Assembly: GCA_016187565.1 (NCBI GenBank)
Contig: JACPJR010000010.1
Coordinates: 68,596 to 132,595 of the forward strand
DNA length: 64,000 nt
Direction of reading: 5' to 3'
Source: Candidatus Woesearchaeota archaeon
GTDB lineage: Archaea; Nanobdellota; Nanobdellia; Woesearchaeales; JACPJR01
Shown piece by piece: positions 13,118-55,683 of this stretch. Below the pieces are notes generated by a model. It made no database searches, had not been told where the DNA came from, and worked only from the letters and a program-made list of their open reading frames with translations. The position numbers and the translations under genes were made by a program. How positions within the stretch are numbered: position 1 is the first letter of the stretch; the number at the start of each line of letters is the position of its first letter.

Positions 13118-13167
13118 TTTCTATTATCTCCATAAGCGAATATTTCTTTTTGTATTTGCTGATTTTT

Positions 13168-14547: not shown

Positions 14548-14562
14548 ATTCCCAGTCGTCTT

Positions 14563-14660
14563 CTATTATAGCAAAGGACACTAATAACCGTAACTTTATG
14601 TCCTTTGCTTATTAGGAAAAGACATACAAATTATTACGAAAATTAATGTATTTTCCTATA
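14563..14660. repeat. Left copy of a ~98-bp near-perfect inverted repeat (partner at 35850-35947); it contains two internal hairpins and a TATA-like end facing the adjacent gene
   Basis: The reverse complement of 14563-14660 matches 35850-35947 at ~97/98 positions. Internal stems are GCAAAGGACA/TGTCCTTTGC and AGGAAAA(T/G)ACAT/ATGTCTTTTCCT. Confidence 0.85.
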
Positions 14661-14718
14661 GATCCTCTTGTGGCATTTGTTTAGGCATCTCAAATTGAAT
14701 ATATATATATACACAGTA

Positions 14719-15669
14719 TTAAAGTTCCATCCCTACCCGTGATTCAACTAAGCTAACGAGGATGTCATAGCAGTGGTGCATGAGAGTTACTAAAATCAGT
14801 TCATTTGTTGGGATTTTCCCTTGTAGTTCTGTGATCTTTGCAAAATTGTTCCATCGTGATCTACTGATATGCATGATTCTTTCCTTATTTAACTCATAAA
14901 AGAGAAGATGATATTCCTCAAAGGCTTTCTGAATGTCCTTCATTAATAATTTTGTTTTTTTATCTAATGTTTCTTGTTTAAATGTCAATAAATGTCGGGC
15001 AGCGAGACGATAAACATCAACGATCTCATCCAGTCCAGTAATGATATGATATAAGAAGATGGTCTTACGGTAATCTTTATAGCCAGCGCGATAAAGTATT
15101 CTCAGGCAGAAATTCGTGAATTTGGTGAGGCCATCATGTTTTTCCTCCATGGTTGCAAGTAATGACGTGTCCATCTTTTCTACTGCTTCCATTACCTGTG
15201 CAATATAGTCACGAATTAACAGGAAAATCCGTCGAAGGATGTCATCAAAGTCTTTCAGCGAACTCTCTGAAATATCTTTAATAATGGCATGGTCTTTTCG
15301 TTCCTCGACAATTTCAAACCCAACCAGCATACCGACTTCACGTTTAATGGCATCGATGGTTTTTACCGTTGTACCCATCTCAAAATTTTCACACAGGGGA
15401 TTCTTGAATAGTACCGTAATCTCGTCAGCACCAACCTTGTAGGAAGACCTCAGCTCATGTCGAACCGAAGAATAATCTAAGCCGGTAATGTCAATAGTAA
15501 TCTGCTGTGCTGTTTTACGGTTCTCTGCGAAGGAACTGATAAGGAGGGTATTGCCACGTTCTTCGACATCTACCTCTGTTTTTGTTGTAATACCACACTG
15601 TTGCGTCCACTGCTTTGGGAGCGTGATCGTGAGCGTGTTGTTTCCCTGCTGGATGACTTTTCGCTTCAT
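14719..15669 (-). CDS. AbrB/SpoVT-domain protein with PhoU-like helical domain (putative phosphate-uptake / transcriptional regulator)
   Basis: The N-terminus KVIQQGNNTLTITLPKQWTQQCGI has the swapped-hairpin AbrB-like pattern. The remainder is helical with PhoU-like D-x-x-x-D periodicity. Confidence 0.45.
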   Translation of the reverse strand: MKRKVIQQGNNTLTITLPKQWTQQCGITTKTEVDVEERGNTLLISSFAENRKTAQQITIDITGLDYSSVRHELRSSYKVGADEITVLFKNPLCENFEMGTTVKTIDAIKREVGMLVGFEIVEERKDHAIIKDISESSLKDFDDILRRIFLLIRDYIAQVMEAVEKMDTSLLATMEEKHDGLTKFTNFCLRILYRAGYKDYRKTIFLYHIITGLDEIVDVYRLAARHLLTFKQETLDKKTKLLMKDIQKAFEEYHLLFYELNKERIMHISRSRWNNFAKITELQGKIPTNELILVTLMHHCYDILVSLVESRVGMEL

Positions 15670-15737
15670 GCTCGCAAGAGGTAACTACGTCTTTATAAAA
15701 CTTTTGAAAATATATTTTTCGAGATAATAAGACTATT

Positions 15738-16442
15738 ATGATATATTTCAATATATTTGATAAGGTAAAAGAATATAAGTATCTACCTGTTTTAAGAAGC
15801 TGTTTTATGGGTACAGCATCTCCAGAGTATAACGGACATTTGTCCTATGACCGCGACGACGCAGGAAGACCACATCTGTCGATTGGCGTACCTGCAGGGC
15901 TTGTTTCTTATCTTTGTGAGCGGTTACCTCAACCAGGTGTTCTTCATGTTGGACCCCGAGATGACCAACCCACCTTGGATTTTACGGTTTTAGATGATTA
16001 TTTTGGTCATGATGGCACACTAAGCAGACCTCTTACAGTCAGCCAAGGAGGGACTATGGTTAGTATTGAAGGGAGAAATGGGTTGTACACTCATCCAGGG
16101 GTTGCAGTAAACTATGATGATGGCTCTATGGTGGAGTGCGTTGATATTTCACCGAATGCCAAGTCTATCTACTGTGGATTTACAGATATTAAAGTGCCTA
16201 CAGGGGATACAGTTGAGGACCAAGTACGCCTCTTTTATGTTCCAGGCAAAGAATTTTTTGATGTAGTGCTTTCTGTCCCTCGAGGAGAGCGTACTCATCT
16301 TTTGGGTATCAGCGGTATTGTTGCTCGACTTATTAGTGAGAATCTTTCCCCATCCTATGTTCATTCCCGACAACCCTTGGATGATGCATTAGTTCAGTTA
16401 GGATATGGTAGACCTAGTCCACAACGACCAGACGTTTGGTAG
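15738..16442 (+). CDS. Hypothetical protein (GC-richer than surroundings; start possibly at ATG 15807)
   Basis: A long ORF with clear codon structure. Composition shifts GC-rich after the first 23 codons. No motif recognised. Confidence 0.4.
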   Translation: MIYFNIFDKVKEYKYLPVLRSCFMGTASPEYNGHLSYDRDDAGRPHLSIGVPAGLVSYLCERLPQPGVLHVGPRDDQPTLDFTVLDDYFGHDGTLSRPLTVSQGGTMVSIEGRNGLYTHPGVAVNYDDGSMVECVDISPNAKSIYCGFTDIKVPTGDTVEDQVRLFYVPGKEFFDVVLSVPRGERTHLLGISGIVARLISENLSPSYVHSRQPLDDALVQLGYGRPSPQRPDVW

Positions 16443-16479
16443 GCTCTCGTCCTTGTACTATCTTCTTGCGTGTGAACAC

Positions 16480-17115
16480 TTATACTTTCTTTACGAGGTT
16501 CATAATATCCGTCGTTACTTCTTGAATGGGTTTGCTTCCGTCAATCGTTCTGAGTAATCGTGCTTTCTGATAATACTCAACGAGAGGTTTTGTTTGTTGA
16601 TGATACACTTCTAATCTTCTTTTGATGGTTTCTTCCTTTTCATCATCTCGTTGGATGAGTTTGCCTTTACACTGGTCACAGATGCCCTTAACATGAGGGG
16701 GGTGGTAATCTAAATGATAGACTGCACCACAATTACTACAGGTTCTTCGACGGGAAATGCGCTTAATTGCTTCCTCATCGTGGAGCTGAATAGAGAGCAC
16801 ATGATCAATAGGCGTCAATTTTTGTAATGCTATTGCCTGTGCTGTTGTTCGTGGAAATCCGTCTAAAATAAAGCCGTTTATGCAGTCTTCTTTGGTAATC
16901 CGTTCCTTAATAATCTTAATGATAAGATCGTCAGGTACAAGCTCTCCAGCATCCATATAAGCCTTGGCTTTCTTTCCGAGGAGTGTGTTGTTCTTTACTG
17001 CTTCTCGTAATATGTCTCCTGTTGAGATCTGCGGTATCTTGAGAAGTTCCATCATTTTTTTTGCTTGTGTACCCTTTCCTGAACCAGGTGGGCCTAAAAG
17101 GACGATCCGTTGCAT
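16480..17115 (-). CDS. adk: Adenylate kinase with Zn-binding lid
   Basis: It has the P-loop LLGPPGSGKGTQA, the AMP-binding region ISTGDILR, and four lid cysteines (CSNCG...CDQCKG). Confidence 0.9.
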   Translation of the reverse strand: MQRIVLLGPPGSGKGTQAKKMMELLKIPQISTGDILREAVKNNTLLGKKAKAYMDAGELVPDDLIIKIIKERITKEDCINGFILDGFPRTTAQAIALQKLTPIDHVLSIQLHDEEAIKRISRRRTCSNCGAVYHLDYHPPHVKGICDQCKGKLIQRDDEKEETIKRRLEVYHQQTKPLVEYYQKARLLRTIDGSKPIQEVTTDIMNLVKKV

Positions 17116-17148
17116 ATGCTGCTCCTTAATTCCTTGTTATTTGTGTGT

Positions 17149-17610
17149 TTAGCCGAAATAGGCAAGTCTTTCCTGCGCCTCGCTCTCGAGTTGCCAGCCT
17201 TCCTTTACTTTTTTCATAATTGGGGCTATTTTTTTCTTAAGAGCTGGCCATTCTTTCCAAAACAGATTAATAAACAAGGCGTTCTCTTTTTCGGTGTTTG
17301 TCACACTTACTTCTGTTGCATAGCGCAGATACCACATAAGGCGTCGATATAAAACATACATCTCCTTTTTTTCTTCTTCATCAAAATTCTTTGCCTCATA
17401 GAGCTCGGTAAAAACCTGGTCCGGTTGTAAGATCTTATCAAGAATATCCAGGTATGGGTCAATTCGGTCAATGATCTTTTTACGGATCTCGCCTAGAAGG
17501 GACCTTTCTGTTTCGATATCGTTTATTTCAAATTCCTCATCAAGCTCTTTATAGAGAGGAAGTTTGTATTTTTTTTGTAATGTTTTATAATGTTGTTCTT
17601 TGTTGCTCAT
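17149..17610 (-). CDS. Hypothetical protein
   Basis: A 153-aa ORF lying upstream of adk in the same orientation. Confidence 0.4.
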   Translation of the reverse strand: MSNKEQHYKTLQKKYKLPLYKELDEEFEINDIETERSLLGEIRKKIIDRIDPYLDILDKILQPDQVFTELYEAKNFDEEEKKEMYVLYRRLMWYLRYATEVSVTNTEKENALFINLFWKEWPALKKKIAPIMKKVKEGWQLESEAQERLAYFG

Positions 17611-17706
17611 GGTAACGCAGGAGAGTAACCTCTTTATTTAAATTTTGTTGTCCTCTAAGGTAAACGAAAGAAACATATAAATAGCCAGTCCCTCTTTTTC
17701 GTCTTC

Positions 17707-18444
17707 ATGAAAGTTTGTATCATCTTGCCTACCTATAACGAACGAGCAAATATTGCTCCTCTTTTTGATCAGCTTATGACCGAATTTTCAGTGCTTGAAC
17801 GTCTTTTTTCAGTGCAGATGCACCTTGTTGTTGTTGATGATAACAGCCCTGATGGTACTGCAGATGCTGTTAAGGCCTACAAGGGCCGTTATCCTCAGGC
17901 TATAGATCTCTTGACTGGCCAAAAACAAGGGTTAGGTATGGCCTATATACGGGGGTTTCACTATGCACTCCAGCAGGGATATGATGTTGTGTTTGAAATG
18001 GACGCAGATTTAAGCCACGATCCCAGCAATTTACGTAATTTCTTACAAGCAATCCAGGAAGGAGCGGATTTTGTTATTGGTTCACGATATATCCATGGAG
18101 GGAGCATCAACGACTGGAGTATCTTCCGGAAAGCGATAAGTACTGGAGGAAACTTTTTTGCACGTATTGTTGCAGGAATGTACACGGTTCATGATTGTAC
18201 CTCTGGCTATCGGGCAATTCGTGCAGATCTGTTACAACGCATTCATGTTGATACTTTACATGCAAAAGGATATGCCTTCCAGATGGATCTGTTGGCAGCA
18301 GCATTACAGGCAAATGCGAAAATTGTAGAAATCCCTATTGTTTTTGCTGATCGTACACATGGAAAATCAAAATTAGGTGCAAAGGACTTTACTGAGTTCA
18401 TCCGTAATGCGTTTATCTTGCGATTGAAAAAGTTTAAGGTTTAG
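17707..18444 (+). CDS. Dolichol/polyprenol-phosphate glycosyltransferase (Dpm1-like GT2)
   Basis: A GT2-A signature is present (ILPTYNERANI ... VVVDDNSPDGT ... GSRY). There is no TM tail, which is typical of Dpm1-like synthases. Confidence 0.75.
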   Translation: MKVCIILPTYNERANIAPLFDQLMTEFSVLERLFSVQMHLVVVDDNSPDGTADAVKAYKGRYPQAIDLLTGQKQGLGMAYIRGFHYALQQGYDVVFEMDADLSHDPSNLRNFLQAIQEGADFVIGSRYIHGGSINDWSIFRKAISTGGNFFARIVAGMYTVHDCTSGYRAIRADLLQRIHVDTLHAKGYAFQMDLLAAALQANAKIVEIPIVFADRTHGKSKLGAKDFTEFIRNAFILRLKKFKV

Positions 18445-19468
18445 GTTTAAGCTTTGTTACTGTTCCCTTGTCTGTATCTACTTCTATCAGGTCACCATCA
18501 TTAAGAAGTTTTGTTGCATTTCCTGTTCCCAGCAATACAGGTATCTTGAGTTCTCTACTGAGTACAGCGGCATGGCAGGTCACACCTCCTTCATCGGTAA
18601 CTATTGCTCCTGCTCTTTTCACACCCTCTACTATTAAATCTGGTGTTGTCATTCTTGAAACTATAATATCACCATCATTCATTTTCTCTATATCTTCAAT
18701 AGTTCTTACTACTTTTACTTTCCCTGTATACGATGCTGGGAATGTTCCTCTTCCTGTAAGTTCATTACTTGCCTCTTCATTAATAACATAACTTTCATTT
18801 TCCTTTAGAAAAAACTTACCTTCTTGAAGGAGGAAATAACAGTTCTGTCTATTGCTGATAAGACTCTTTACATCTAGCTCATCCCCATCCAGCAAATGTA
18901 TGATTTCTATTGGTTTTAGGAATTTTACTTCATCTGTACTTACATCAAACCTTTTTCCAATTTCTTCAAATACTGGCTCAATAAGTTCATGTGTCTTGTT
19001 AAAACTTGATCTTCCTAAGAATCTTAAATCCGCCATTCTATCTATTGTTTTCTTTTTTTCTTCTAATCCATCGGTAAAAATAGTGATATTAAAATAAGGG
19101 TAAGGTGCCTTATATCGTCTGAAGTATCCCTCTAATAATTCCTTAAGCTCCCTATTTGATAATCTATCTAAATCTCTTTTTGCAATCTCTTCTGAAAAAT
19201 GAACCAAGTTTTCAAAATGGAATTTCCCTCTTTCCAATATCTTACTCATGAATTGAGGATTTTGAGCTATTTTATCTTTCAAGAATTTTGAAAATTCTTT
19301 TCCACTTTGCTTCTGAACAAAATGAGCAAACGTGTTTCCTCTTCTTATTGTTAAAAAATTGCTATGGTGTCTATTATGAACCTGTGGGAAATCCTCAACA
19401 TAGTTCTCATAGAGAAGATAATTCTTCAAAAAGTCCCCTTCTCTTTCCACTAATTTTTCCCAGGTCAT
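18434..19468 (-). CDS. Protein with C-terminal PEP-utilising-enzyme mobile (swivelling phospho-histidine) domain
   Basis: The C-terminus GDIIVSRMTTPDLI ... AIVTDEGGVTCHAAVLSRELKIPVLLG carries the conserved T(S/C)HAA phospho-His motif. Confidence 0.6.
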   Translation of the reverse strand: MTWEKLVEREGDFLKNYLLYENYVEDFPQVHNRHHSNFLTIRRGNTFAHFVQKQSGKEFSKFLKDKIAQNPQFMSKILERGKFHFENLVHFSEEIAKRDLDRLSNRELKELLEGYFRRYKAPYPYFNITIFTDGLEEKKKTIDRMADLRFLGRSSFNKTHELIEPVFEEIGKRFDVSTDEVKFLKPIEIIHLLDGDELDVKSLISNRQNCYFLLQEGKFFLKENESYVINEEASNELTGRGTFPASYTGKVKVVRTIEDIEKMNDGDIIVSRMTTPDLIVEGVKRAGAIVTDEGGVTCHAAVLSRELKIPVLLGTGNATKLLNDGDLIEVDTDKGTVTKLKPKP

Positions 19469-19469
19469 G

Positions 19470-20153
19470 TTATTTTACCATCAGATCTATACCTCGACAT
19501 CCAGTGACTAAGTCAGACAGTCTTTTTTTTGCTTGGGGTAGATTTACTTCTACTTCAGTAATATGATTTGAGAATAAATCCAATAACATATAGGAACAAA
19601 CTGCAAATTGCGAAATCATGTCATTTGGAAATTCAGATACTGATACATTTGCTTTTTCACCCTTTTTTTTATGTACTACCATCCTTTCAACTAATTCTCT
19701 CTGTCTTCGTGCGTAAGAAATATCACTGACTTCCACTGAATTGAAGTCCCGTTCATTTTCAAATATGTAATGTACAGTGTCCTTGTAACAGTAAAAGCGA
19801 ATAGGAAAAGAAATGCCTTCTGGAAGAAATCTCATCTCTCTTCTTTCCGTGACTGCTCTATCTTTCCCGAATTTCTCGACTAACCACTCTGCAGGATAAT
19901 ATAATCCTATTGTTGCTATTCTTTTTTGCTGTTTAATTGGAACGATTTCTCTTCTGCTTCTATCAGGCATTCCAAGAGTATTCCATAAAGTATCAGAATG
20001 TCCGACAAAATGGTGGTAAGTTTCACTTTGATCAAGATATATGATCATAGCCTTTATTCGCTGAAATACTTGTCCTGAACCAAAATAGGTTTTGTATTCT
20101 AATACACTAAAATCATATTGAAGGTCTTTCATGGTAGTCTTTAACCCCATCAA
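19470..20153 (-). CDS. Hypothetical protein (same operon as the PEP-utiliser-domain gene)
   Basis: A 227-aa ORF. Its start overlaps the end of the upstream gene by 41 nt. Confidence 0.4.
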   Translation of the reverse strand: MMGLKTTMKDLQYDFSVLEYKTYFGSGQVFQRIKAMIIYLDQSETYHHFVGHSDTLWNTLGMPDRSRREIVPIKQQKRIATIGLYYPAEWLVEKFGKDRAVTERREMRFLPEGISFPIRFYCYKDTVHYIFENERDFNSVEVSDISYARRQRELVERMVVHKKKGEKANVSVSEFPNDMISQFAVCSYMLLDLFSNHITEVEVNLPQAKKRLSDLVTGCRGIDLMVK

Positions 20154-20799
20154 AACATGATATTTTAACCACGCCCTTATCTACCAATCCCTCTAAGACT
20201 TCACCAGAGTATTGATTTTTCCTATCAACTAAATAGATGCTCGCTGAACCATTGGCTTGCCTGATACCATCTGAGGCAGCCCTGCAAACAGAGGGCTTAT
20301 CGTCAAAAATAGCATAAATCCCTCCTTCTGTTCTTTCCCATAACCTTACAAATGTCTCTGGAAAGTCTTTATCTCCAATTTCCTCTCCAAGAAAATACTC
20401 ATCTACAAGATCAGACAGCTTTTGATTTGCTCCAATTGGCAACCCATAAAGAATATCGGTAAAATCTTTTGAAGCTGAGGTTAATATACCAATTCTTCTT
20501 CTATTTTCCTTAACTTTTTGAAATCGTGGAACAGTATCTGGAAATATAGTTGCTTCTAAATCTATTAGAAAATCGCCAGTTCTATATGCCTGAGTCCAAA
20601 CAGTACACATAGCTGAGAAACACTCTTGTGGTATGCTATGTCCTTGAACTTCTCTATTTCTCGCTTCTTCTTTTAGCTTTTCTGCTAATTGCTGATCACT
20701 AACATATCTATCAATATTATTAACTATAAATTCATACATCCCTTTTACAGCTCTGTGCGTTGTTCTTCCCATATCATAAAGTTCTATCATTTTCATCAC
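20113..20799 (-). CDS. Hypothetical protein (first gene of a three-gene minus-strand unit)
   Basis: A 228-aa ORF with no recognisable motif. Confidence 0.4.
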   Translation of the reverse strand: MMKMIELYDMGRTTHRAVKGMYEFIVNNIDRYVSDQQLAEKLKEEARNREVQGHSIPQECFSAMCTVWTQAYRTGDFLIDLEATIFPDTVPRFQKVKENRRRIGILTSASKDFTDILYGLPIGANQKLSDLVDEYFLGEEIGDKDFPETFVRLWERTEGGIYAIFDDKPSVCRAASDGIRQANGSASIYLVDRKNQYSGEVLEGLVDKGVVKISCFDGVKDYHERPSI

Positions 20800-20895
20800 C
20801 CTAACTCAATAACAGAATCAATATATAAATTTTTGTTGTTATATAGTATTACAACAATAATAAAATTTAAATACTCGTGGGTATTACTGGATCAT

Positions 20896-21639
20896 ATGGA
20901 CGTAAAATCAATACTCGAAGAAGCAGGATTGGCAGGCAATGAGGCCAAGGTTTATCTGGCATTATTAGATTTAGGCTCTACATTAGCTGGAGATGTCACC
21001 AAAAGATCAGGAGTAAATAGAACTAATGTTTATGATGCGTTAGACAAGCTTATTGAAAAAGGTCTGGTGAGTTATGTGATTAAAGCTAATAGAAAATATT
21101 TTGAGGCTGCATCTCCTACAAGGATTATCAAGTATCTTGACGAAAGAGAAGAGGAAATCAAGAGAAAGAGAGAGCTTGTCAATTCTGTCTTAACAGATCT
21201 TGAAACAAGGAGGAAATTAAATAAAGAACCTCAAGAGGCAACCATCTATAAAGGAAAAAAAGGATTGAGATCAATAGCTGAAGATGTTCTGAAAACAAAA
21301 AAAGAATTGCTGGTTTTTGGAGCAGAAGGGAGATTTGTTGACATATTCCAGCATTATGCTGAACAGTGGCACATGAAACGAGGACTATTGAAAATTCCAA
21401 TAAAGATAATTTACACTGAAAAAACAAGGAAAAAAAAAGCTACAGCGAAGTTTCCCATTTCACAGATAAGGTTTAATCCTCATGTCTATGACACTCCGGC
21501 AACTACCTGGATCTATGGGGATAAAATCGCAATAATTGTCTGGTCAGATCAACCTATTGCTACCCTTGTAAGGAGTAAAGAGGTAACGCATTCTTACCGA
21601 CAATTTTTTACGGTGTTGTGGAACTCATCAAAAAAATAA
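20896..21639 (+). CDS. TrmB-family transcriptional regulator
   Basis: An N-terminal wHTH is present (LGLAGNEAKVYLALLDLGSTLAGDVTKRSGVNRTNVYDALDKLIEKGLV). I moved the start to ATG 20896, because the 69 codons upstream are AT-rich junk. Confidence 0.6.
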   Translation: MDVKSILEEAGLAGNEAKVYLALLDLGSTLAGDVTKRSGVNRTNVYDALDKLIEKGLVSYVIKANRKYFEAASPTRIIKYLDEREEEIKRKRELVNSVLTDLETRRKLNKEPQEATIYKGKKGLRSIAEDVLKTKKELLVFGAEGRFVDIFQHYAEQWHMKRGLLKIPIKIIYTEKTRKKKATAKFPISQIRFNPHVYDTPATTWIYGDKIAIIVWSDQPIATLVRSKEVTHSYRQFFTVLWNSSKK

Positions 21640-21646
21640 AAGAGCA

Positions 21647-22069
21647 TTACTTTTTTTCAACCGTACAGCCAAGCTTTTCAAGAGTCTTTATCGCTCTTGT
21701 TAGGTTACTTTTCTTCACCATGAGGTGATCTGTGGAGTACGCAGAAATCACCATAATCGGAATTTTTTCTTGTGCAAGTGCTGTAGAAACAGTTGCCACA
21801 AATCCAATTAACTCAAATGGCAAAACCATAGCAAAAGTCAGCATTCTCCAATTCTTTTCAATGGCAATTGCATTTTTTTGAAGGAATTGGTTTTTGTTGC
21901 ATTGTAATTGATCAATAATAACGGTTGTTTCATTCTTATCGACAATATTTACAAAAGCATCCGGACTTGTCGTCTTTGATTTGACAATGACAAAGGTTTC
22001 TTTCCAGACATAGACTTTGCCATTTTTGAAATAGGCTTCAACGTCCATGGTCAGGCTTCGCTTATTCAT
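21647..22069 (-). CDS. ACT-domain-containing protein
   Basis: The C-terminal half (LTFAMVLPFELIGFVATVSTALAQEKIPIMVISAYSTDHLMV) has ACT-like beta-alpha-beta-beta-alpha-beta spacing. Confidence 0.45.
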   Translation of the reverse strand: MNKRSLTMDVEAYFKNGKVYVWKETFVIVKSKTTSPDAFVNIVDKNETTVIIDQLQCNKNQFLQKNAIAIEKNWRMLTFAMVLPFELIGFVATVSTALAQEKIPIMVISAYSTDHLMVKKSNLTRAIKTLEKLGCTVEKK

Positions 22070-26041: not shown

Positions 26042-26534
26042 CTCCGTAGAGATTTTTATAATAAGAAATACCGGTTATGAATAGGAGTATGCTCCAAATA
26101 AACAGGGCATACGGCAACACAGGGATCCACCCAAAGAGCAACAAAGGGGTTGCTGCATAAAAGAGCGTCATGAGTAAGTGTGTGTACTTCATTTCCCTTT
26201 TCAGTATGGCAAAAAGGCCCTTTATAAGGATGCTCCCCATAAATAAAATAAACGTGCCTAGGAAAAAATACAAAAATGCTAAAGAGAGAGACATTCCTGC
26301 CAGATAGTTCACGAGCCTCAGGTACTGAACATCAGCAGAAAGTGCCATCTCAAAATAGAATGCACGAGCTAAACCGAAACCGAAATTAAAGAAACCAGCA
26401 ACAATTCCTAATGTTACCAGAAGTATCAGATAATCGATGAGTACACTTTCAAAACGCCTCTGGTAGACTACAGAAAATTCTCGGTCTGGATGAACAAGAA
26501 TGTTCCATCCTCGATGAAGGGCTTTAGTGATCAT
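26010..26534 (-). CDS. Integral membrane protein (Yip1-like topology)
   Basis: About 5 TM helices. No catalytic motif. Confidence 0.4.
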   Translation of the reverse strand: MITKALHRGWNILVHPDREFSVVYQRRFESVLIDYLILLVTLGIVAGFFNFGFGLARAFYFEMALSADVQYLRLVNYLAGMSLSLAFLYFFLGTFILFMGSILIKGLFAILKREMKYTHLLMTLFYAATPLLLFGWIPVLPYALFIWSILLFITGISYYKNLYGVAKDSIAYRD

Positions 26535-26558
26535 ACTTCATGCAGGAGATTTTTGTTT

Positions 26559-28121: not shown

Positions 28122-29614
28122 CTTTCCTCAAGAATGCAGAGACTTTCATATATCTTTGCCCCTTCTGCATATGTTAACACAAAACATTCTCGGTCTGCAT
28201 AGGGTAAGGAATTTATGTTATATCGTTCCATTGTTCGTTCTGATAACAAAATATATCGTGCATGATATTTGTTAGCAATCGCAATGGCATTGGTTTTGTA
28301 AGGGGTCGTGTAAATCTCCTCTAAATCCTGAAGCCGTTCATCGACATCATCAATGAGCAAGAATTGGGCATCTGCGATATTTTTCCTTTGGCCTAATGCA
28401 GTAACAAGATGGCCTTCTTCAAGAGGCGTAATAACACTGGAGTTAGCGTAGGTGTTGTTGACAAGCCAGGTAAATGCAGCTATTGTCTGTTTTGTAGTTC
28501 CCATCTGTTGTTGCTTTTGGAGCGACGCCACGGTTGGGTATAGAGAGGTAATAACAAACACTATGGAGAGAATGACAATGACAAGCGTTCTGGTGTGTGC
28601 AAGCTTTGTTTTTTCGAGATATTCAAAGAATCGTCTGAAGAATTCACTGAAGAGAAGAGCCAAAACACTTCCTAAAAACATAAGTCCGGCGGTCACGGCA
28701 ATAAGTTTTAACCATAACAGGAGTGAAACGGCAATGGCAAACGAAAGCAAGAAGAAAATTGCTTTTCGCTTTTGTCCAACAAGGGACTTGTAAATCACCC
28801 AAATACCACAAATAAAGGGGATAATGCCTATCTGGTAAATTGCCTGGAGAACAGAAATTTGTGTAAAATGCTTCGCTAATAGCGATGAAGGAATATTTTG
28901 CCAGATAACTCCCAAACCATGATATAAAAGAGCGTCTTTATACATAAGGAAATAGAACCATAGGTAAAATAACAGCGCAAAAATAGTTACTTCGATTTCT
29001 CCACGAGTAAGTTCTATTCGTTCAACAAGCGCAATGATAAGATAAATTCCCATAGCAAGAAGAATAATAAACGAAGAAGGATGAAAGAGGAGAAGCGCAA
29101 CTAATGCAATAACAAAGTGGTTAAAATTTCTCTCTTTTTTGATAAAGAGGTAGGCGAGAAGAAAGGTTCCAAAAATCATAAGTGTATACACCGAACCGGT
29201 GTTAAAGGTTTCGGTCACAAAGATAGGAATAAACCCAGCAATGAGGGCTGTAAACAATGCTGCATCCTTTGTTTTTGTGATGTCTTCAGCGATAAGATAG
29301 GCAATAAAAATAAATGAACTAGCGAAAATATTTGGGAGGATTTTAATGACCAGAAGAGTAGGTATCCCTAAGCTGAAAAAAGCTAACAGGTAGGCATACA
29401 CAGGGTTAAAGAGTAAAAATCGTCCACCATAGCTTAAAGGGTCATGAAATAATGGCGTACCGGTTTTGGTGATATGCTCTACATTGCGAAGCAGAAAATA
29501 TGAATCAGCATCGCTTAATCCTTCTAGTTGGAATGCAACGTACAGCCGTATTCCTAGCGTAATTAAAAAAATGAAAACTAGGATCGTTTTTATGAGGTAA
29601 TTATTGCTGCTCAA
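28118..29614 (-). CDS. Polytopic membrane protein, GT-C-fold glycosyltransferase-like (paralogue of 26559..28121)
   Basis: The first extracytoplasmic loop (LSDADSYFLLRNVEHI) carries a D/E motif as in GT-C enzymes. About 12 TM helices and a C-terminal soluble domain. Confidence 0.4.
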   Translation of the reverse strand: MSSNNYLIKTILVFIFLITLGIRLYVAFQLEGLSDADSYFLLRNVEHITKTGTPLFHDPLSYGGRFLLFNPVYAYLLAFFSLGIPTLLVIKILPNIFASSFIFIAYLIAEDITKTKDAALFTALIAGFIPIFVTETFNTGSVYTLMIFGTFLLAYLFIKKERNFNHFVIALVALLLFHPSSFIILLAMGIYLIIALVERIELTRGEIEVTIFALLFYLWFYFLMYKDALLYHGLGVIWQNIPSSLLAKHFTQISVLQAIYQIGIIPFICGIWVIYKSLVGQKRKAIFFLLSFAIAVSLLLWLKLIAVTAGLMFLGSVLALLFSEFFRRFFEYLEKTKLAHTRTLVIVILSIVFVITSLYPTVASLQKQQQMGTTKQTIAAFTWLVNNTYANSSVITPLEEGHLVTALGQRKNIADAQFLLIDDVDERLQDLEEIYTTPYKTNAIAIANKYHARYILLSERTMERYNINSLPYADRECFVLTYAEGAKIYESLCILEER

Positions 29615-29779
29615 GGAGCATCATGAGTCGTGTTGAGATCTCTTCTTTATACTCGAAATTTCTCTTTATCGAATCTCTTTATCTTAGGAGGGGTTGCCTT
29701 AATAAAGGTATCGCCCAAATTTATGACAAACAAACCTTTTTATAGAGGTTTTCCTTTCTTTCCCGAGGATAAGCAACGT

Positions 29780-30466
29780 ATGGACACAAAAATCTCTTCG
29801 GGAACTGAAGTTTTTGATACCTTTCTTCAAGGGGGCTATGATCGGGATGTCATTACCACGATCTATGGTCCGGGTGGAGTAGGAAAAACCTGTCTCTGTA
29901 CTCTTTGTAGCATTGCGGTTATTAACCGTGGTAAGAAAGTAATATATATTGACACTGAGGGGGGATTCTCTTTGGCGAGACTACAACAACTTACCCCCCA
30001 CTATGCCACTGTTCTTAACCATATCCTTTTTCTTAAGCCAAGTCATTTCGAAGAACAGAAGCGTATCATTGAGAAGCTCAGAACAATTGCCACTGAATCA
30101 ATCGGTCTCATTGTTGTCGATACAATTGGGATGTTGTACCGTTTAGAGTTTACTAAAGACGAGGCTGTTTTTGATCTTAACCGAGAGCTTGGAAAACAAC
30201 TTGTCTGCTTGGCTGATATTGCACGGAAGCGAAACATCCCTGTTCTTGTTGCAAATCAAGTTTACTCAGCTGTGGCTGAGGCAAATGGAGTTCGGATGGT
30301 TGGTGGCGATATTCTTCTGTATGGAAGTAAGTGTTTAATTGAATTACAGAAAGAACAAAAAAATCTAAGGAAAGCAATCTTAAAAAAACATCGAAGCCTT
30401 CCTGAGCAAGAGATGTGTTTTCACATTGTTCAAGAGGGAATAGAACGAGCGATAAGGCAAGGATGA
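29780..30466 (+). CDS. radB: RadB-like RecA-superfamily recombination/repair ATPase
   Basis: The N-terminus ISSGTEVFDTFLQGGYDRDVITTIYGPGGVGKT is a Walker A motif in RadB-like context. About 229 aa from ATG 29780. There is no N-terminal HhH domain, which fits RadB rather than RadA. Confidence 0.65.
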   Translation: MDTKISSGTEVFDTFLQGGYDRDVITTIYGPGGVGKTCLCTLCSIAVINRGKKVIYIDTEGGFSLARLQQLTPHYATVLNHILFLKPSHFEEQKRIIEKLRTIATESIGLIVVDTIGMLYRLEFTKDEAVFDLNRELGKQLVCLADIARKRNIPVLVANQVYSAVAEANGVRMVGGDILLYGSKCLIELQKEQKNLRKAILKKHRSLPEQEMCFHIVQEGIERAIRQG

Positions 30467-30553
30467 AAATCTTTAGAAAAAGACAAAGATAGGTTTATAA
30501 ACAATTTCAATTTTCCCTTCTTTTTCTGAACCTGTACGTAGGAGGTGGAATGT

Positions 30554-30760
30554 ATGAAGAAGGCATACGACGAAGACATGGAAGAAGATGCTGAAGAAAC
30601 TAAAGAGGAATCTGACGACGAAGACATGGAAGAAGATGCTGAAGAAGAAGAATCTGATGACGACGAGGATAGTGAAGAAGAAGAGTCTGACGATGATGAT
30701 GAGGACGCTGATAAAGACGACAAGGACGACGAACCATTTGAAGAAGAGGACAAATATTAA
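30554..30760 (+). CDS. Small hyper-acidic protein (68 aa, ~70% Asp/Glu)
   Basis: A strong RBS (GGAGGTG) lies 6 nt before ATG 30554. The sequence MKKAYDEDMEEDAEETKEESDDEDMEEDAEEEESDDDEDSEEEESDDDDEDADKDDKDDEPFEEEDKY has DEDMEEDAEE repeated twice. Confidence 0.5.
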   Translation: MKKAYDEDMEEDAEETKEESDDEDMEEDAEEEESDDDEDSEEEESDDDDEDADKDDKDDEPFEEEDKY

Positions 30761-30904
30761 GTTGGACTTTAAATCTTTTATATAGTCTATAGACTGTTTT
30801 TTCTGTTTTTTTCTTTTTTCTTACGTTCCTTACCTTTGTTTCTTCTTTGTTCGATCGTTGAAATAAGAGAAATGCTTTTAAATGCAAACCCTTCTCTTAA
30901 CTTT

Positions 30905-32386
30905 ATGAGTATAACGATTGAAGAAATGGCGTCGTTTTGCAAACGAAAAGGCTTTGTTTATTCTGGAGCTGAAATTTATGGGGGTATAGCGGGATTCTTT
31001 GATTATGGGCATTTAGGTGTCGAGCTTAAGAATAACCTCAAGGCAGTGTGGTGGAAGGTGCATGTACATTCACGTGAGGATATTGTTGGCATCGATGGTT
31101 CTATTATTACCAACCCAAAGGTATGGGAAGCCTCTGGTCATGTTGCTCATTTTGAGGATCTTATCCTTGTTTGTCGTCAATGTAAGCATAAAGTCAGAGC
31201 AGATCAGTTTATTGAAACAACGCTTCATCAATCTGCTGATGGATTGACTGCAGAGGCTATCCAGGATCTTATCGAAAAACACCATCTTCATTGTCCTGTA
31301 TGTACAAAAGGTATGTTTGAAGCTGTTGGTCATTTTAATCTTATGTTTAAGACGCATGTTGGGCCTACAAGCGACTATGTTGCCTATCTACGGCCAGAAA
31401 CCGCGCAATTGATCTTTGCAAACTTTAAATTGGTTGCTGATAATGCTCGACTGAAGTTGCCATTTGGTATTGCACAGATCGGTAAGGCATTCAGAAATGA
31501 AATTGCTCCTCGTGATTTTCTTTTTCGATGTCGGGAATTTGAGCAGATGGAAATTGAGTATTTTATTCACCCCAATCAGCTACAGATATGTCCATTTCTT
31601 AAAGACTATCTTAGTTATAGTTTGCTGATGTATGCCGTAGATCTCCAGCAGCAGGGTAAAGATCCGGTGAAGATGACTGTTCAGGAAGCTCTTGATCAGG
31701 GTATTCTTAAAACACCGTGGCATGGCTATTGGCTTGCCCATGAGCATACGTGGTTTGTTCGTCTTGGCGTTAATCCTGATCATTTACGAATCAGGCAGCA
31801 CCTTCCCAAAGAAGTGAGCCATTATGCTCTCGATACGTGGGATTTGGAGTATAAATTTCCGTTTGGTTGGAAGGAATTACTGGGTATTGCTAATAGGACC
31901 GATTTTGATCTCCAACAACATATGAAACACAGCAAGGTTGATCTTTCCTTATTTGATGAAGCAACTAAACAGAAGGTTGTTCCTCATGTTGTGGCCGAGC
32001 CTTCGTTAGGACTAGATCGTGCATTTTTGGTGTTCCTCTTTGAAGCATACGAAAATGATCAGAAACGGGGAAATATTGTTCTCCATCTTCATCCACGATT
32101 AGCTCCTATTAACGTAGGAGTTTTCCCTCTCGTAGCAAAACTTGAAGAAGATGCACGAAAGCTCTATGCTCTGTTGAAGGATGAATTTGTCTGTTTTTAC
32201 GATAAAAGCGGCAGTATTGGAAGAAGGTATGCACGAGCTGATGAGATTGGTATTCCCTACTGCCTTACGGTAGATTTTGATACCTTGAAGGACGGATGTG
32301 TGACGATTCGGGATAGAGAGACGACAGAACAGAAACGAGTTCCTATTAGCGAACTTAGCTTGACGTTACGGGTATTATTGTCATAA
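30905..32386 (+). CDS. glyS: Glycyl-tRNA synthetase, archaeal/eukaryotic alpha2 type
   Basis: FVYSGAEIYGGIAGFFDYGHLGVELKNNLK is the class-II motif 1 region. The GlyRS-specific insertion and the anticodon-binding C-terminus (GRRYARADEIGIPYCLTVDFDT) are present. The start is uncertain between ATG 30872 and ATG 30905. Confidence 0.9.
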   Translation: MSITIEEMASFCKRKGFVYSGAEIYGGIAGFFDYGHLGVELKNNLKAVWWKVHVHSREDIVGIDGSIITNPKVWEASGHVAHFEDLILVCRQCKHKVRADQFIETTLHQSADGLTAEAIQDLIEKHHLHCPVCTKGMFEAVGHFNLMFKTHVGPTSDYVAYLRPETAQLIFANFKLVADNARLKLPFGIAQIGKAFRNEIAPRDFLFRCREFEQMEIEYFIHPNQLQICPFLKDYLSYSLLMYAVDLQQQGKDPVKMTVQEALDQGILKTPWHGYWLAHEHTWFVRLGVNPDHLRIRQHLPKEVSHYALDTWDLEYKFPFGWKELLGIANRTDFDLQQHMKHSKVDLSLFDEATKQKVVPHVVAEPSLGLDRAFLVFLFEAYENDQKRGNIVLHLHPRLAPINVGVFPLVAKLEEDARKLYALLKDEFVCFYDKSGSIGRRYARADEIGIPYCLTVDFDTLKDGCVTIRDRETTEQKRVPISELSLTLRVLLS

Positions 32387-32413
32387 AAAAGAAAAAAATG
32401 CGCGTCTCTGTGC

Positions 32414-32809
32414 TTAGCGTTTTACCGTCTCCCACAACCCAATAATATTCTCTTCCGTGTCCTTGATCTGGGCATAGAATCCCATATCGCCCACAGCAAC
32501 CTTCTTGCGGAAGATCTTACCCCCCTTACTCTCTACCTTTTTTACGTATTCATCAACCGAGGGAACATCAATGACAAGAACAGGAGTTTTGCTTGAATCC
32601 TTATCCCTCTTGTACATCCCGCCGTTAATGCCGCCGACTTCGGTTGGCATAAACTTCTTATCTACTGGTGTTGTCGTTATCATCCAATAAGGCATGCCAG
32701 GTGCTGCAGTAATATCCCAGCCAAAAATCTCCTTGTAAAACTTCTGTGCCCTATTGGTGTCGTCTGCCGGTATCTCAAAATGGACAACTTTGCGCATGTT
32801 TTTTCCCAT
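32414..32809 (-). CDS. VOC-family (glyoxalase/bleomycin-resistance fold) protein
   Basis: VVHFEIPADDTNRAQKFYKEIFGW matches the VOC beta-alpha-beta-beta-beta module start. 131 aa. Confidence 0.7.
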   Translation of the reverse strand: MGKNMRKVVHFEIPADDTNRAQKFYKEIFGWDITAAPGMPYWMITTTPVDKKFMPTEVGGINGGMYKRDKDSSKTPVLVIDVPSVDEYVKKVESKGGKIFRKKVAVGDMGFYAQIKDTEENIIGLWETVKR

Positions 32810-32825
32810 AGTTTCACCTCAATCT

Positions 32826-32895
32826 TTATTAAAAGTTTGATCAAAGGGGTGCAACATAAAGTTGCACATCGCGGCCTTCGTGTTGTCGTAATAAC
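32826..32895. repeat. Copy 1 of a ~55-70-bp repeated hairpin element (copy 2 at 47432-47501)
   Basis: aagtttgatcaaaggggtgcaacataaagttgcacatcgcggccttcgtgttg matches the 47.4-kb copy with 3 mismatches. It contains the perfect stem GTGCAAC-ataaa-GTTGCAC. Confidence 0.75.
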
Positions 32896-32964
32896 CGTGC
32901 CAATAACACCATATTTCCATGCATGTAATAAATATGACTTACTGCCCGTGTTCTGGAGAAAATT

Positions 32965-33822
32965 CTATACCTTCATAGCCTCTAATCGCTTAATGCGCTC
33001 TTCCATGGGTGGATGGGTTGAAAGCAAGTTGGTGAATCCCTTTGCATTGAACGGATTGGCAATAAACAAACTGCTCGTAGCTGGGCTACCAAAATGCATG
33101 GGATCGTGTTGTATACCTTTCTCAAGCTTTGCTAATGCACTCGCAAGACTCTTTGGATTGCGAATAGTACGCGCGCCAGTCTCATCGGCAATATACTCTC
33201 GGGAACGGGAGATTGCTAACTGAATAAGCGTAGCAATAATAGGGGTAAGTATGGCCAATACTAAAAGTTCAAGGAGGTTACTGTCTCTATCTCTATCTCC
33301 AAAACCAAAGATAGCAGACCATCGAGCCATCATGGCAACGTAGGAAATAACTCCTGCAATGGTTGCTGCAATCGTTTGAATGAGGATATCCCTATTTTTG
33401 ATATGGGCAACCTCATGGGCAATAACTCCTTTTAATTCTTCTTTAGTCAGCAGTTTCAGGATTCCTTCAGTACAGGCAACAGCCGCGTGCTTTGGATTTC
33501 TTCCGGTTGCAAACGCATTTGGGGTTGACGATGGAATAATGTATATCTTTGGCATAGGAATTCCTGCCAAGGTTGTCACTTCCTTAACGATGTGGTATAA
33601 TTGTGGTTCTTTGGCTTCTGTCACCTGCTTTGCCCGGTACATCAGGAGGACGATCTTATCCGAGAAAAAATAACTTCCGACGTTGAGGACTAAGGCAAAA
33701 ACAAGCCCAATAATAAGCCCGCTTGTTCCCCATAAGCTTCCGATCCATAGCATCAGGGCTGTTAAAAAGGAAAGGAGGATAAATGTTTTAAACTGATTTT
33801 TCATCATAGCGATCACCGGCAT
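32965..33822 (-). CDS. htpX: HtpX-like M48 zinc metalloprotease
   Basis: HEVAHIKNRD is the HExxH motif. There are two N-terminal and two central TM helices. The C-terminal motif reads LASALAKLEK. Confidence 0.8.
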   Translation of the reverse strand: MPVIAMMKNQFKTFILLSFLTALMLWIGSLWGTSGLIIGLVFALVLNVGSYFFSDKIVLLMYRAKQVTEAKEPQLYHIVKEVTTLAGIPMPKIYIIPSSTPNAFATGRNPKHAAVACTEGILKLLTKEELKGVIAHEVAHIKNRDILIQTIAATIAGVISYVAMMARWSAIFGFGDRDRDSNLLELLVLAILTPIIATLIQLAISRSREYIADETGARTIRNPKSLASALAKLEKGIQHDPMHFGSPATSSLFIANPFNAKGFTNLLSTHPPMEERIKRLEAMKV

Positions 33823-33904
33823 ATGAAGACCTTTATGCTTTAAAAAACTTATGCATTAATGGTCTAAGAGGAGTTTTTGGGCGACTTTACATTTACTTCT
33901 CTAC

Positions 33905-34288
33905 TTACTCTTGATAGTACGTAGATAATCCTTCGATTTGCCTCAGGGAAGTATGCCGAAGGAGAAAATGGCGGATTTCATTGTGGATTCGTACACCGTA
34001 ATGGTTCAAACCTCGATGAAGTGAACCATATAATTTTTTTCCTTCTTCGTCCAAATCAGTCAAAATAATGGCATCACGATACTTGGTCGCAACTTCTTCC
34101 ACAATGCTAAATAACGGTTTACTATTCAAGGTAACAATCGTATTGGTTAACCCTAATGAACGGAGTGCTGCCATATCTTTCTTACCTTCAACGATAATCG
34201 GAAATTGCGTTTCCTTTACTTTGGCAAGCAAGGCAAAAAATACTTCATGGTTTTTTTTCATAAGGATAACGAGCGAGGGATACACCAT
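33905..34288 (-). CDS. Small Toprim-domain protein
   Basis: IIVEGKKDMAALRSLG ... AIILTDLDEEGKKL matches the Toprim E...DxD acidic pattern. Confidence 0.5.
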   Translation of the reverse strand: MVYPSLVILMKKNHEVFFALLAKVKETQFPIIVEGKKDMAALRSLGLTNTIVTLNSKPLFSIVEEVATKYRDAIILTDLDEEGKKLYGSLHRGLNHYGVRIHNEIRHFLLRHTSLRQIEGLSTYYQE

Positions 34289-34411
34289 CCATGTTTTTTC
34301 TATCTTTCTATCAGTAAAAGTATATGGGTGGCCAAGTTTTAATATTTTTGTATCGCAGATTCACAACAACCCCACACAACTCTTATAAAGGAAAGAAGCC
34401 TTCTTTAGAGT

Positions 34412-35842
34412 ATGGAGCTGTCGGAATCACCAACCCCTCAGGAATCAAACGATCAGCATAAAAGAGTTTATCCGGTAATCCCTGTAGGAACGCTTTTACG
34501 CTTTTACAAGCGTCCTGAAATTCAAGAAGCCATTGTTGCTGCTGCTCAGCAACGCGAGGTGGCAGTCCGCTTTGGTAATGCGGGTTTTGGTAAACGTCCT
34601 GATATCTTACGGTATCCAAATGATGTCCTTGAACTGGTAAAAGAAGGCGCTACATCATTCCATTGTTCAGAAGAACTTTGGCATAACCCACTGCTTTTAC
34701 AAACGGGTATGAACAAGCATACGATAGAAGAGCTGCGTGTTGGATGGGATTTAGTTATTGACATTGATTGTCAGATCCTTGAGTACAGTGCTGTTGCAGG
34801 TCATCTTATTATTAATGCATTACAATATCACGGCATTACTGCGATTTCGTGTAAATTCTCAGGGAACCATGGATTTCATATTGGCGTTCCTTTTGCTTCT
34901 TTTCCTGAACGATGTTTAGGTTCTGCAACCAAGGATTTGTTTCCTGAAGCCCCTCGACGGATTGCTCGTTATCTTAAGGATATGATTGCGCCGCATCTCA
35001 GCAAAGAACTGCTCAAGAAAGACTCTTTTGAGACTATCCAAAAAAAAACAGGTAAACCAAAAGAAGAGTTGCTCAATAAACGCGTTTTTGATCCATTTAC
35101 TATCCTCGATATAGACACCTTGTTATTGTCCCATCGGCATCTCTTTAGAAGCCCTTACTCCTTTAATGAAAAAAGTGGTCTCATTTCAGTGCCTATTAAC
35201 CCTAAACGCATCCTTGATTTTCAACCAGTAATGGCTCGTCCTGATGTCGTGCCTCTTTCGCGATATTCATTTTTAGACCGTACACCTGAAAAACTTGGAG
35301 AGGCAACACAGTTATTAGTCCAGGCATATGATCACAAGCCACAGATTACGGAGATGATCGAAAGAAGAAAAGAAAAGGAAAATTCCTTTACGTTTATGGA
35401 ATCTCAAGAAGCTATTCCCGAGGAGCTTTTTCCTCCGTGTATTCAAAAGTTATTACAGGGCCTTCCTGATGGTCGTAAGCGTGCTGTTTTTATTCTTGTT
35501 AATTTCCTCCAAAGCGTTGGATGGAGTTATGAAAAAATAGAACAACGGTTACTCGCATGGAACAAGTGCAATAATGAGCCATTGCGAGAGGTTGTTATCA
35601 AAGGCCAAATAAGGTATCATAAGGCAAACAAAAAAAAGATACTGCCGCCTAACTGCGATAATCCTGCATACTACACTGCTCTTGGCGTAAAATGCGAGGA
35701 TCGTATCTGCACAAGGTGCAAGAATCCGGTAAATTATGCCAAACGAAGAATGTATCTTCAGGAGCAACCAAAGAAAAGAGGAAGAAAGAAGTCAACTGTC
35801 GATGAACCTAAACCGAATAATGATGTTCAAGAGTTGGAATAA
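34412..35842 (+). CDS. Archaeo-eukaryotic primase (AEP) catalytic subunit with C-terminal helical/Zn-binding extension (PriS-like; possibly PriS fused to a PriL-CTD-like module)
   Basis: AEP motif I (WDLVIDIDCQ), motif II (FSGNHGFHIGV) and motif III (RVFDPFTILDIDTLLLSHRHLFRSPYSFNEKSG) are present. The C-terminus has helical PriCT-like segments and a Cys cluster (PNCDNPAYY...CEDRICTRCKNP). Confidence 0.65.
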   Translation: MELSESPTPQESNDQHKRVYPVIPVGTLLRFYKRPEIQEAIVAAAQQREVAVRFGNAGFGKRPDILRYPNDVLELVKEGATSFHCSEELWHNPLLLQTGMNKHTIEELRVGWDLVIDIDCQILEYSAVAGHLIINALQYHGITAISCKFSGNHGFHIGVPFASFPERCLGSATKDLFPEAPRRIARYLKDMIAPHLSKELLKKDSFETIQKKTGKPKEELLNKRVFDPFTILDIDTLLLSHRHLFRSPYSFNEKSGLISVPINPKRILDFQPVMARPDVVPLSRYSFLDRTPEKLGEATQLLVQAYDHKPQITEMIERRKEKENSFTFMESQEAIPEELFPPCIQKLLQGLPDGRKRAVFILVNFLQSVGWSYEKIEQRLLAWNKCNNEPLREVVIKGQIRYHKANKKKILPPNCDNPAYYTALGVKCEDRICTRCKNPVNYAKRRMYLQEQPKKRGRKKSTVDEPKPNNDVQELE

Positions 35843-35849
35843 CATTGAA

Positions 35850-35947
35850 CTATAGGAAAAGACATTAATTTTCGTAATAATTTGTATGTCTTTTCCTAAT
35901 AAGCAAAGGACATAAAGTTACGGTTATTAGTGTCCTTTGCTATAGTG
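35850..35947. repeat. Right copy of the ~98-bp inverted repeat (partner 14563-14660)
   Basis: See the left copy. It contains the perfect 12-bp stem AGGAAAAGACAT/ATGTCTTTTCCT and the 10-bp stem GCAAAGGACA/TGTCCTTTGC. It ends ...gctatagtgg ~40 bp upstream of the VIT-family gene. Confidence 0.85.
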
Positions 35948-35986
35948 GATTAAAATGTTGAAATATTTATATAGGGCTAGTGTTTA

Positions 35987-36861: not shown

Positions 36862-36948
36862 TAGCCCCGCCCGGATTCGAACCAGGGTCACAAGGTCCAG
36901 AGCCTTGTATGATTGGCCTCCTTGATTTGGCCGCTACACTACGGGGCT
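36862..36948 (-). tRNA. tRNA (candidate tRNA-Gln, anticodon CUG) with an apparent ~14-nt non-canonical intron near the D-arm/anticodon-stem junction
   Basis: The minus strand reads AGCCCCG-TA-GTGT-AGCGGCCAA-ATCA-A-[GGAGGCCAATCATA]-CAAGG-CTCTGGA-CCTTG-TGAC-CCTGG-TTCGAAT-CCGGG-CGGGGCT-A. The A1:U72 acceptor stem is perfect, the T-loop is GTTCGAATC, and the 5-bp anticodon stem is perfect with U33 and purine-37. Removing the bracketed 14 nt gives a 73-nt canonical tRNA. The intron boundaries are my inference. Confidence 0.55.
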
Positions 36949-55650: not shown

Positions 55651-55683
55651 GTGTCGTCAAAAAACCAAAAATTAATTAAAAAT

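Follow-up and report, generated by a model that had tools for sequence, protein, structure and literature searches.

An inverted pair of long, nearly identical repeats that frames 21 kb of housekeeping genes invites the question whether the two arms and the segment between them form one element, or whether the arms came to lie there separately. This arrangement occurs in the window analyzed here, 64,000 nucleotides (nt) of contig JACPJR010000010.1 from a Candidatus Woesearchaeota archaeon, for which an initial annotation had described an inverted repeat of ~98 bp and proposed an invertible segment, a promoter/terminator module resembling a MITE (miniature inverted-repeat transposable element), or the ends of an ancient composite element. 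The evidence laid out below makes it very probable that the arms are two independent intergenic insertions of a 95-bp, AT-rich, non-coding, non-autonomous transposon of the MITE type that circulates in Woesearchaeota. The 21-kb housekeeping segment is no unit of anything.

The inverted pair and the anatomy of the 95-bp unit

A repeat search across the window returned a single standout inverted pair, 14562-14664 with 35847-35949 (103 nt, 96% identity), the runner-up inverted pairs being only 30-34 nt long and 71-80% identical. The longest exact inverted word measured at least 60 nt, as against 15-18 nt in five shuffles. Base-by-base comparison placed a core of 95 bp at 14567-14661 on the + strand (the left copy, TATAGCAAAGG...TTTTCCTATAG) and at 35850-35944 on the - strand (the right copy, inverted), with 94 of 95 positions identical and identity dropping off abruptly outside the core at both borders. 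The sole mismatch is an A at 14650; its counterpart in the right copy, at 35861, is the consensus C in the unit's own orientation and G on the + strand. Under a covariance model of the unit, R1, the left and right copies score 115.6 and 120.5 bits, respectively. The repeat described by the initial annotation is therefore real, though its right arm had been drawn one base out of register: the left arm given there, 14563-14660, pairs with 35851-35948 and not with 35850-35947, and does so at 95 rather than 97 of 98 positions.

Independent assemblies bear on whether the second copy might be an artefact, as the initial annotation had cautioned. At three of the four repeat junctions, Logan assemblies (k = 31) from several SRA runs are 100% identical to the window; their contigs terminate within the repeat, at 14620, 35877, and 35915. 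Because three junctions are recovered independently, the repeat is a property of the organism and not of one assembly. Logan contigs L005 and L010, which part from the window at or close to the element, were considered as empty-site alleles and rejected, as their tails (L005 5067-5083 and L010 2435-2453) consist of the Nextera adapter CTGTCTCTTATACACATCT; such adapter tails mimic a divergent junction beside the element.

The unit has a GC content of 27% and is non-coding, with stops in all frames and no open reading frame (ORF) listed inside it. On the + strand, the left copy reads TATAG-CAAAGGACA-(18 nt)-TGTCCTTTGCT-TAT-TAGGAAAAGACAT-(20 nt)-ATGTMTTTTCCTA-TAG. The termini are TATAG/CTATAG at both ends. 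Two strong hairpins per copy, as initially described, are present, and their stems are slightly longer than the 10 and 12 bp claimed. Hairpin H1 of the left copy (14570-14609, +) has an 11-bp stem and an 18-nt loop, with arms AGCAAAGGACA (14570-14580) and TGTCCTTTGCT (14599-14609); hairpin H2 (14613-14658, +) has a 13-bp stem and a 20-nt loop, with arms TAGGAAAAGACAT (14613-14625) and ATGTATTTTCCTA (14646-14658). In the right copy, H1 lies at 35902-35941 on the - strand (arms 35931-35941 and 35902-35912) and H2 at 35853-35898 on the same strand (arms 35886-35898 and 35853-35865), the latter with a perfect 13-bp stem; the A at 14650 disrupts one H2 pair in the left copy only. Folded as DNA, the whole 95-mer reaches -20.3 kcal/mol (z = -7.9).

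The two hairpins are related to each other. Each unit contains four copies of the 12-mer TAGSAAARGACA, in the order + - + -, and 8 of the 14 matches to this 12-mer in the window (1.65 expected) fall within the two units. In every copy, H1 and H2 (the latter in reverse complement) can be aligned, loops included, as TATAG-SAAARGACAY-TAATnnYCGTAA...TATGTCYTTTSC, with an identity of 56-65% across all eight elements known to us (the two window copies and six others described below). H1 and H2 differ at two stem positions, and the arms are complementary within each. On this alignment, the unit can be described as a tail-to-tail inverted doublet of a palindromic sub-unit of ~46 nt. As the sub-units are mutually inverted, the outer ends make a 14-nt terminal inverted repeat (TIR), TATAGSAAARGACA; TATAGCAAAGGACA agrees with the reverse complement of the far end, TATAGGAAAAGACA, at 12 of 14 positions. 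Its size, in the range from tens to a few hundred bp, its lack of coding capacity, and a TIR of at least ~10 bp are all what is expected of a MITE.

Dispersal and mobility of the unit

Metagenome contigs from JGI were scanned for the exact central junction of the unit. This yielded six contigs (L013-L018) from three JGI metagenomes, all carrying full units between unrelated flanks; since the scan demanded an exact central junction, conservation at the center of these copies is biased and is no sign of selection. The contigs have a GC content of 30-34%, with one at 40%, and encode archaeal proteins that include RtcB, FtsZ, an FKBP-type, and a UbiA-type protein; a protein flanking the unit in L013 has Woesearchaeota homologues. 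Identity to the window copies ranges from 69 to 99%: it is 85-99% for five of the copies and ~70% for the sixth, in L016, both of whose loops carry insertions. The copy in L013, a contig of 33% GC, is a single base apart from the right window copy (99%). In all copies, homology stops at TATAG on one side and at CTATA on the other. The two window copies and the six from JGI thus have the multiple occurrence, unrelated flanks, and sharp borders of a MITE family. Dispersed copies with no association to rearrangement breakpoints, which the initial annotation had named as the outcome that would reduce the repeat to a simple MITE, are found in kind, with eight copies spread over metagenome contigs.

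The Logan data suggest that there are more. Contigs on the primase side of the right copy end at 35877, 14 nt short of the 35891 predicted at k = 31 from two copies of which the left differs at 35861, and these contig ends suggest that the samples contain one or more additional copies of the consensus type. Within the 64-kb window, nhmmer and covariance model R1 found no third full copy. Scans of IMG/VR with the junction, H1, and H2 gave no matches, nor did blastn against phage and plasmid collections. Three other candidates were set aside: a junction match in a genome contig of a Ruminococcaceae bacterium, which is a chance palindrome; a partial match at 47703-47732, which lies inside the pelota coding sequence and was taken as chance; and a hairpin at ~1940-1975, inside a KaiC-domain gene and with E = 2.6, taken likewise. 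Contig L017 also carries other, unrelated long hairpin repeats (506-667 and 3137-3256; stems of 12-14 bp, CTAC...GTAG cores), which suggests several palindromic repeat families in its Woesearchaeota-like genome.

Both nested and empty sites indicate that the unit moves. In L013, the unit is nested within another member of the family, a diverged one whose H1 loop it interrupts, in the layout TATAG-CAAGTGACA...TGTCACTTGC-TTATTA-CGAAGCGACAT...ATGTCGCTGAG-TATAG. In the relatives L020/L021, homologues of both genes that flank this composite (64% amino acid identity) overlap, with no element between them and an alignment that is clean on both sides. The right window copy has an empty counterpart as well: in a relative, L019, whose primase is 85% identical in amino acid sequence, the spacer between the primase gene and the following VIT-family gene is 91 bp long and lacks the unit. 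The VIT promoter, TATTTATATAGGGCT, is conserved in L019 and lies, in the window, between the insertion point and the gene. Filled and empty orthologous sites, another mark of MITEs, are therefore present for the right window copy (L019) and for the L013 composite (L020/L021). Elsewhere, L019 carries a solo sub-unit of a diverged subfamily (TTTACGAACGGACA...TGTCCGTGAGTATAG) at 12422-12510 on the - strand, where it overlaps the 3' end of the VIT gene. This solo sub-unit has additional compensated stem changes, and it demonstrates that single sub-units exist besides doublets.

The flanks of the copies point to a target. On the left, Y-TA precedes TAG in eight of eight cases, and on the right, TA-R follows CTA in 10 of 10; no longer direct repeat borders any copy, and one site is CTAG. 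Elements of the IS630/Tc1-mariner type and their bacterial MITEs duplicate a TA target. By analogy, a TA-duplicating DDE mechanism fits the Woesearchaeota unit as the most likely one. Under such a mechanism, a transposase encoded elsewhere and acting in trans would bind the TAGSAAARGACA 12-mers, or the hairpins that they make, and the unit would move into TA dinucleotides in a Y-TA-R context, duplicating the TA in an IS630/Tc1-mariner-like manner. On the MITE reading, the opposite orientation of the window pair reflects nothing more than the chance landing of two insertions, 21 kb apart, in two ordinary intergenic spacers.

Several observations weigh against two MITE insertions mobilized in this way. 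Only two copies are found in 64 kb and a 35-kb Logan contig to the left is unbroken, so that local density is low. Both empty sites are in relatives too diverged for base-exact junctions, and because TA is present in every copy, a TA duplication is inseparable from the element's own ends. A Pfam check of the window identified no transposase or recombinase, and no transposase with matching ends was found in the sequences examined. Lastly, the diverged family member in L013 has five two-sided stem changes, all from one reconstructed sequence. Together with the difference between H1 and H2, whose arms nonetheless stay complementary, such compensated changes make the hairpin itself look constrained, and a plain model of binding sites for a DDE transposase needs no constraint of that kind.

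Known element families and rival explanations

Small bacterial MITEs are common, and they are less than 200 bp long and AT-rich, with TIRs, TA termini, target duplication, and long stem-loops (PMC2229807). The Woesearchaeota unit resembles the Correia/NEMIS elements of Neisseria, the RUP elements of Streptococcus pneumoniae (IS630-Spn1), and ERIC in being ~100 bp long, AT-rich, non-coding, and mostly intergenic, in its TIRs and TA ends, in its long stem-loops, and in its filled and empty sites among relatives (PMC2229807 for the family traits). It is unlike them in its DPANN host, in having no sequence similarity to them, and in its build, with a pair of self-palindromic sub-units where they have a single long imperfect palindrome; the IS630-type partner and the TA duplication of the bacterial MITEs are both still putative for it. 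Correia ends also begin with TATAG. The stretch 35941-35957, which takes in the right copy's end and the adjoining flank, reads TATAGTGGATTAAAATG and resembles the Correia terminus (TATAGTGGATTAAA...); since the flank is homologous to that of the element-free L019, we take this likeness as coincidence. Among archaea, the Sulfolobus SM elements (cited in PMC2229807) are likewise non-autonomous and TIR-bounded, and a MITE-Tracker census placed a Woesearchaeal genome, with ~105 MITEs per Mb, among the most MITE-dense archaeal genomes (PMC11602168). The palindrome-associated elements of the IS200/IS605 group (PATEs) share with the unit their small size, absence of coding capacity, and hairpins at the ends. 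In PATEs, however, both subterminal hairpins point the same way on one strand, a TIR is lacking, and insertion takes place beside a fixed target of 4-5 nt on the left, whereas the sub-units here are inverted and form a TIR, which places the unit outside that group. We know of no described archaeal MITE family with the double-palindrome build.

The explanation that survives best beside the MITE reading, though we regard it as improbable, is a REPIN-like one, in which a Y1 HUH enzyme of the IS200/RAYT type would cut and rejoin the folded hairpins with their TATAG head as single-stranded DNA (ssDNA), with no target duplication. It is the constraint on the hairpin that keeps such a single-strand mechanism in play. 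H1 is homologous to the reverse complement of H2 through the loops, and this is the inverted doublet that defines REPINs; REP/REPIN-RAYT systems and BIMEs are similarly intergenic, with the palindrome occurring singly or as an inverted doublet of ~100 bp and with compensated stems (PMC3116915, PMC3733652). Stem complementarity is preserved by two-sided changes in the Woesearchaeota unit while H1 is unlike H2 within one element, and the solo sub-unit of L019, with its compensated stems, parallels REPs that are single or dimeric. The unit is nevertheless longer than these elements. Its stems (11-13 bp) and loops (18-22 nt) are inside, but at the upper end of, the ranges tabulated for GTAG repeats, which have stems of 5-13 bp and loops of 2-20 nt, with most families at 6-9 bp and 2-3 nt (PMC3733652). 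It lacks the unpaired GTAG or CGTC tag that accompanies the short REP palindrome, and the AG of its TATAG is base-paired. No RAYT was seen, and neither the window nor any compared locus holds a Y1 gene; RAYT-type TnpA subclasses are unseen in Archaea, where only IS200 subclass 1.1 has been observed (PMC6006769). The constant Y-TA...TA-R flanks, furthermore, suggest TA targeting and are the trace expected of a TA-duplicating DDE enzyme. Taken to its full extent, this explanation would make the unit an archaeal counterpart of REPINs, mobilized as ssDNA by a Y1 HUH or other structure-specific enzyme and spreading among Woesearchaeota of differing GC content, which we consider doubtful. To our knowledge, REPIN-RAYT-type systems have so far been regarded as purely bacterial.

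Returning to the two arms as MITE insertions, the segment that they enclose can be considered by its gene content and synteny. The 21-kb interior encodes adenylate kinase, glycosyltransferases, TrmB, RadB, GlyRS, an M48 peptidase, and a Toprim protein, in agreement with the initial annotation of this stretch as mostly housekeeping and unlikely to be a mobile island. Relative L019 is collinear with the window from ~28.1 to 45.0 kb, in the same order and orientation and spanning the position of the right copy: the order PMT2-RadB-GlyRS-M48-Toprim-primase, then VIT-PRC-RFC-...-SLT, is unchanged in L019 without that copy. As L019 lacks the right copy and is still collinear, the window arrangement is ancestral and the right copy is no rearrangement breakpoint; the synteny comparison that the initial annotation called for revealed no rearrangement across the right copy. 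For the left junction, a close relative was sought and not found: identity to the PhoU/AbrB-like protein reaches 42% in its best homologue. Protein look-ups directed past the right edge of the window gave no exact match.

A segment carrying adk, glyS, radB, and primase that is flipped by homologous recombination or by a site-specific recombinase, the first proposal of the initial annotation, is accordingly very unlikely. Two inverted 95-bp copies that agree at 94 positions could serve homologous recombination as a substrate, passive inversion between the copies is physically possible, and short-read assemblies that break in the repeat are compatible with a minor inverted isomer. Against a switch stand the unchanged order in L019 and the absence, by Pfam, of any invertase, integrase, or other recombinase from all genes between 8.6 and 40.8 kb, in or next to the segment. 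On the six other contigs, the unit is single and no partner that would make up a pair is seen, and the contents are housekeeping genes, offering no promoter or alternative gene ends to switch. Switches of the Hin/Gin/Fim type occur in both orientations, and only one was seen in the window and, across the right copy, in L019. The ends of an ancient composite element find no better support, as the arms are 95 bp long and non-coding and the would-be cargo is housekeeping, syntenic with a relative that is missing an arm. The 99% identity of the copies also marks them as recent, not ancient.

The immediate surroundings of the copies bear on a regulatory role. The left copy sits 19 bp upstream of a Schlafen/AlbA_2-HATPase_c_4-wHTH gene (13168-14547, -) and downstream of a co-directional PhoU/AbrB-like gene (14719-15669, -) whose stop is at 14719. 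The right copy lies 7 bp past the stop (35842) of a fused, co-directional PriS-PriL primase gene (34412-35842, +) and 42 bp before a rubrerythrin-VIT ORF as listed (35987-36844, +), or 51 bp before its probable ATG at 35996. At NCBI, two proteins of a Candidatus Woesearchaeota archaeon, encoded on a 197-kb contig, match at 100% identity: HYW21_03195 the primase and HYW21_03080 the PhoU/AbrB-like protein. The copies are therefore directly upstream of outward-facing genes, Schlafen-like on the left and VIT on the right, just as the initial annotation had it.

There is very little chance that the unit is a host cis-regulatory or RNA element (the operator of a palindrome-binding regulator, a terminator/promoter cassette, or a small structured RNA) that was duplicated because it is useful. 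Such a role would be in keeping with the same orientation of both window copies relative to their co-directional flanking genes, each directly upstream of a gene, and with good RNA folding on both strands (z = -4.7 and -3.7). In addition, the left copy leaves only 19 bp to the Schlafen start, so that transcription must begin within the element or cross it. Across the eight copies, however, the settings include tandem genes (in either orientation), convergent pairs, and divergent pairs, and this variety makes a fixed role as promoter, terminator, or operator unlikely. The TTTATATA box of the VIT gene (35966-35973, +) is outside the element, 22 nt before the ATG at 35996; because it is kept in the element-free L019, the element is not the source of the VIT promoter. 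We make no claim of a promoter role at the Schlafen gene, where 16 nt separate the terminal CTATAATA box from the ATG, as compared to 22 nt at VIT. Neither does the unit contain a run of five or more T, and a search of Rfam, with gathering thresholds as well as with E <= 10, returned no match to it. Loops and flanks that are 99% identical at unrelated loci fit recent copying better than convergent regulation, and the nested insertion and empty sites indicate mobility. Of the MITE-like promoter/terminator module proposed at the outset, the MITE-like half is thus supported, by dispersal, nesting, and empty sites, and the promoter/terminator half is not. A replication origin, with ORB-like inverted repeats close to genes for replication and to a minimum of the GC skew, was dropped as an explanation because the unit occurs in unrelated contexts elsewhere.

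Other features of the window and significance of the family

Several further observations concern the genes beside the copies. Two independent Logan contigs, of which one spans 35 kb, approach from the left and stop at the same base, 13386, in the stretch 13357-13386 of the Schlafen gene, and a protein look-up returned no exact record for the Schlafen-like protein of the window; on these two grounds, the 5' two-thirds of the gene seems to be repeated or variable in the population. In a patch of 34% GC (11782-14547), a SIR2_2-like gene adjoins the Schlafen/AlbA_2 gene, and a Cas4/PD-(D/E)XK gene lies at 8599-9486; together they probably form a small defense island directly beside the left MITE copy. 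On the other side, the 476-amino-acid primase is one protein that weakly matches the families of the small and the large primase subunit alike. It is the fused PriS-PriL form, which is common to hundreds of homologues from Woesearchaeota/Nanoarchaeota.

Other features lie to the right of the pair or away from the copies. A tRNA gene of 87 nt at 36862-36948 (-), which scores 50 bits in Rfam, was missed by ARAGORN and probably contains an intron; intron-containing tRNA genes are common in archaea. A GC-rich stretch of ~300 nt (47330-47640), with the gene at 46019-47233 (-) on one side and pelota on the other, has fold z scores of about -5 on both strands and no Rfam match even at E <= 1. Part of it (47436-47499, 64 nt) has an 88% identical counterpart in the spacer between the glyoxalase and M48 genes (32833-32896), and the stretch may encode a structured RNA that has escaped annotation and that has another, partial copy. 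Finally, a perfect direct repeat of 258 nt (55375-55632 and 56941-57198), together with a 35-nt repeat (55125-55159 and 57219-57253), encloses a nucleotidyltransferase gene (55755-56327) and a possible HEPN-type partner ORF (56317-56817, no Pfam match) in a low-GC patch. The region 55125-57253 looks like a recently duplicated or inserted cassette.

What was suspected to be a 21-kb invertible or composite element is replaced by two small mobile insertions, and the housekeeping block between them is not an island. The outcome is a defined Woesearchaeota MITE family, which has a diverged subfamily and is described by its consensus, its borders, and the covariance model R1. The family is mildly unusual in its double-palindrome build and in its 99% identity across lineages that differ in GC content (a genome of 40% and a contig of 33%). 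Since DPANN genomes are small and presumed to be streamlined, the presence of nearly identical copies in lineages whose GC content differs suggests that mobile elements have recently passed among these lineages. The left insertion, 19 bp from the start codon of a defense-type Schlafen/AlbA_2 gene, may affect the expression of that gene. In practical terms, the family can be used as a marker for strain typing and is now a known cause of assembly breaks, and finding its transposase would reveal the transposition chemistry that operates in these uncultured archaea.

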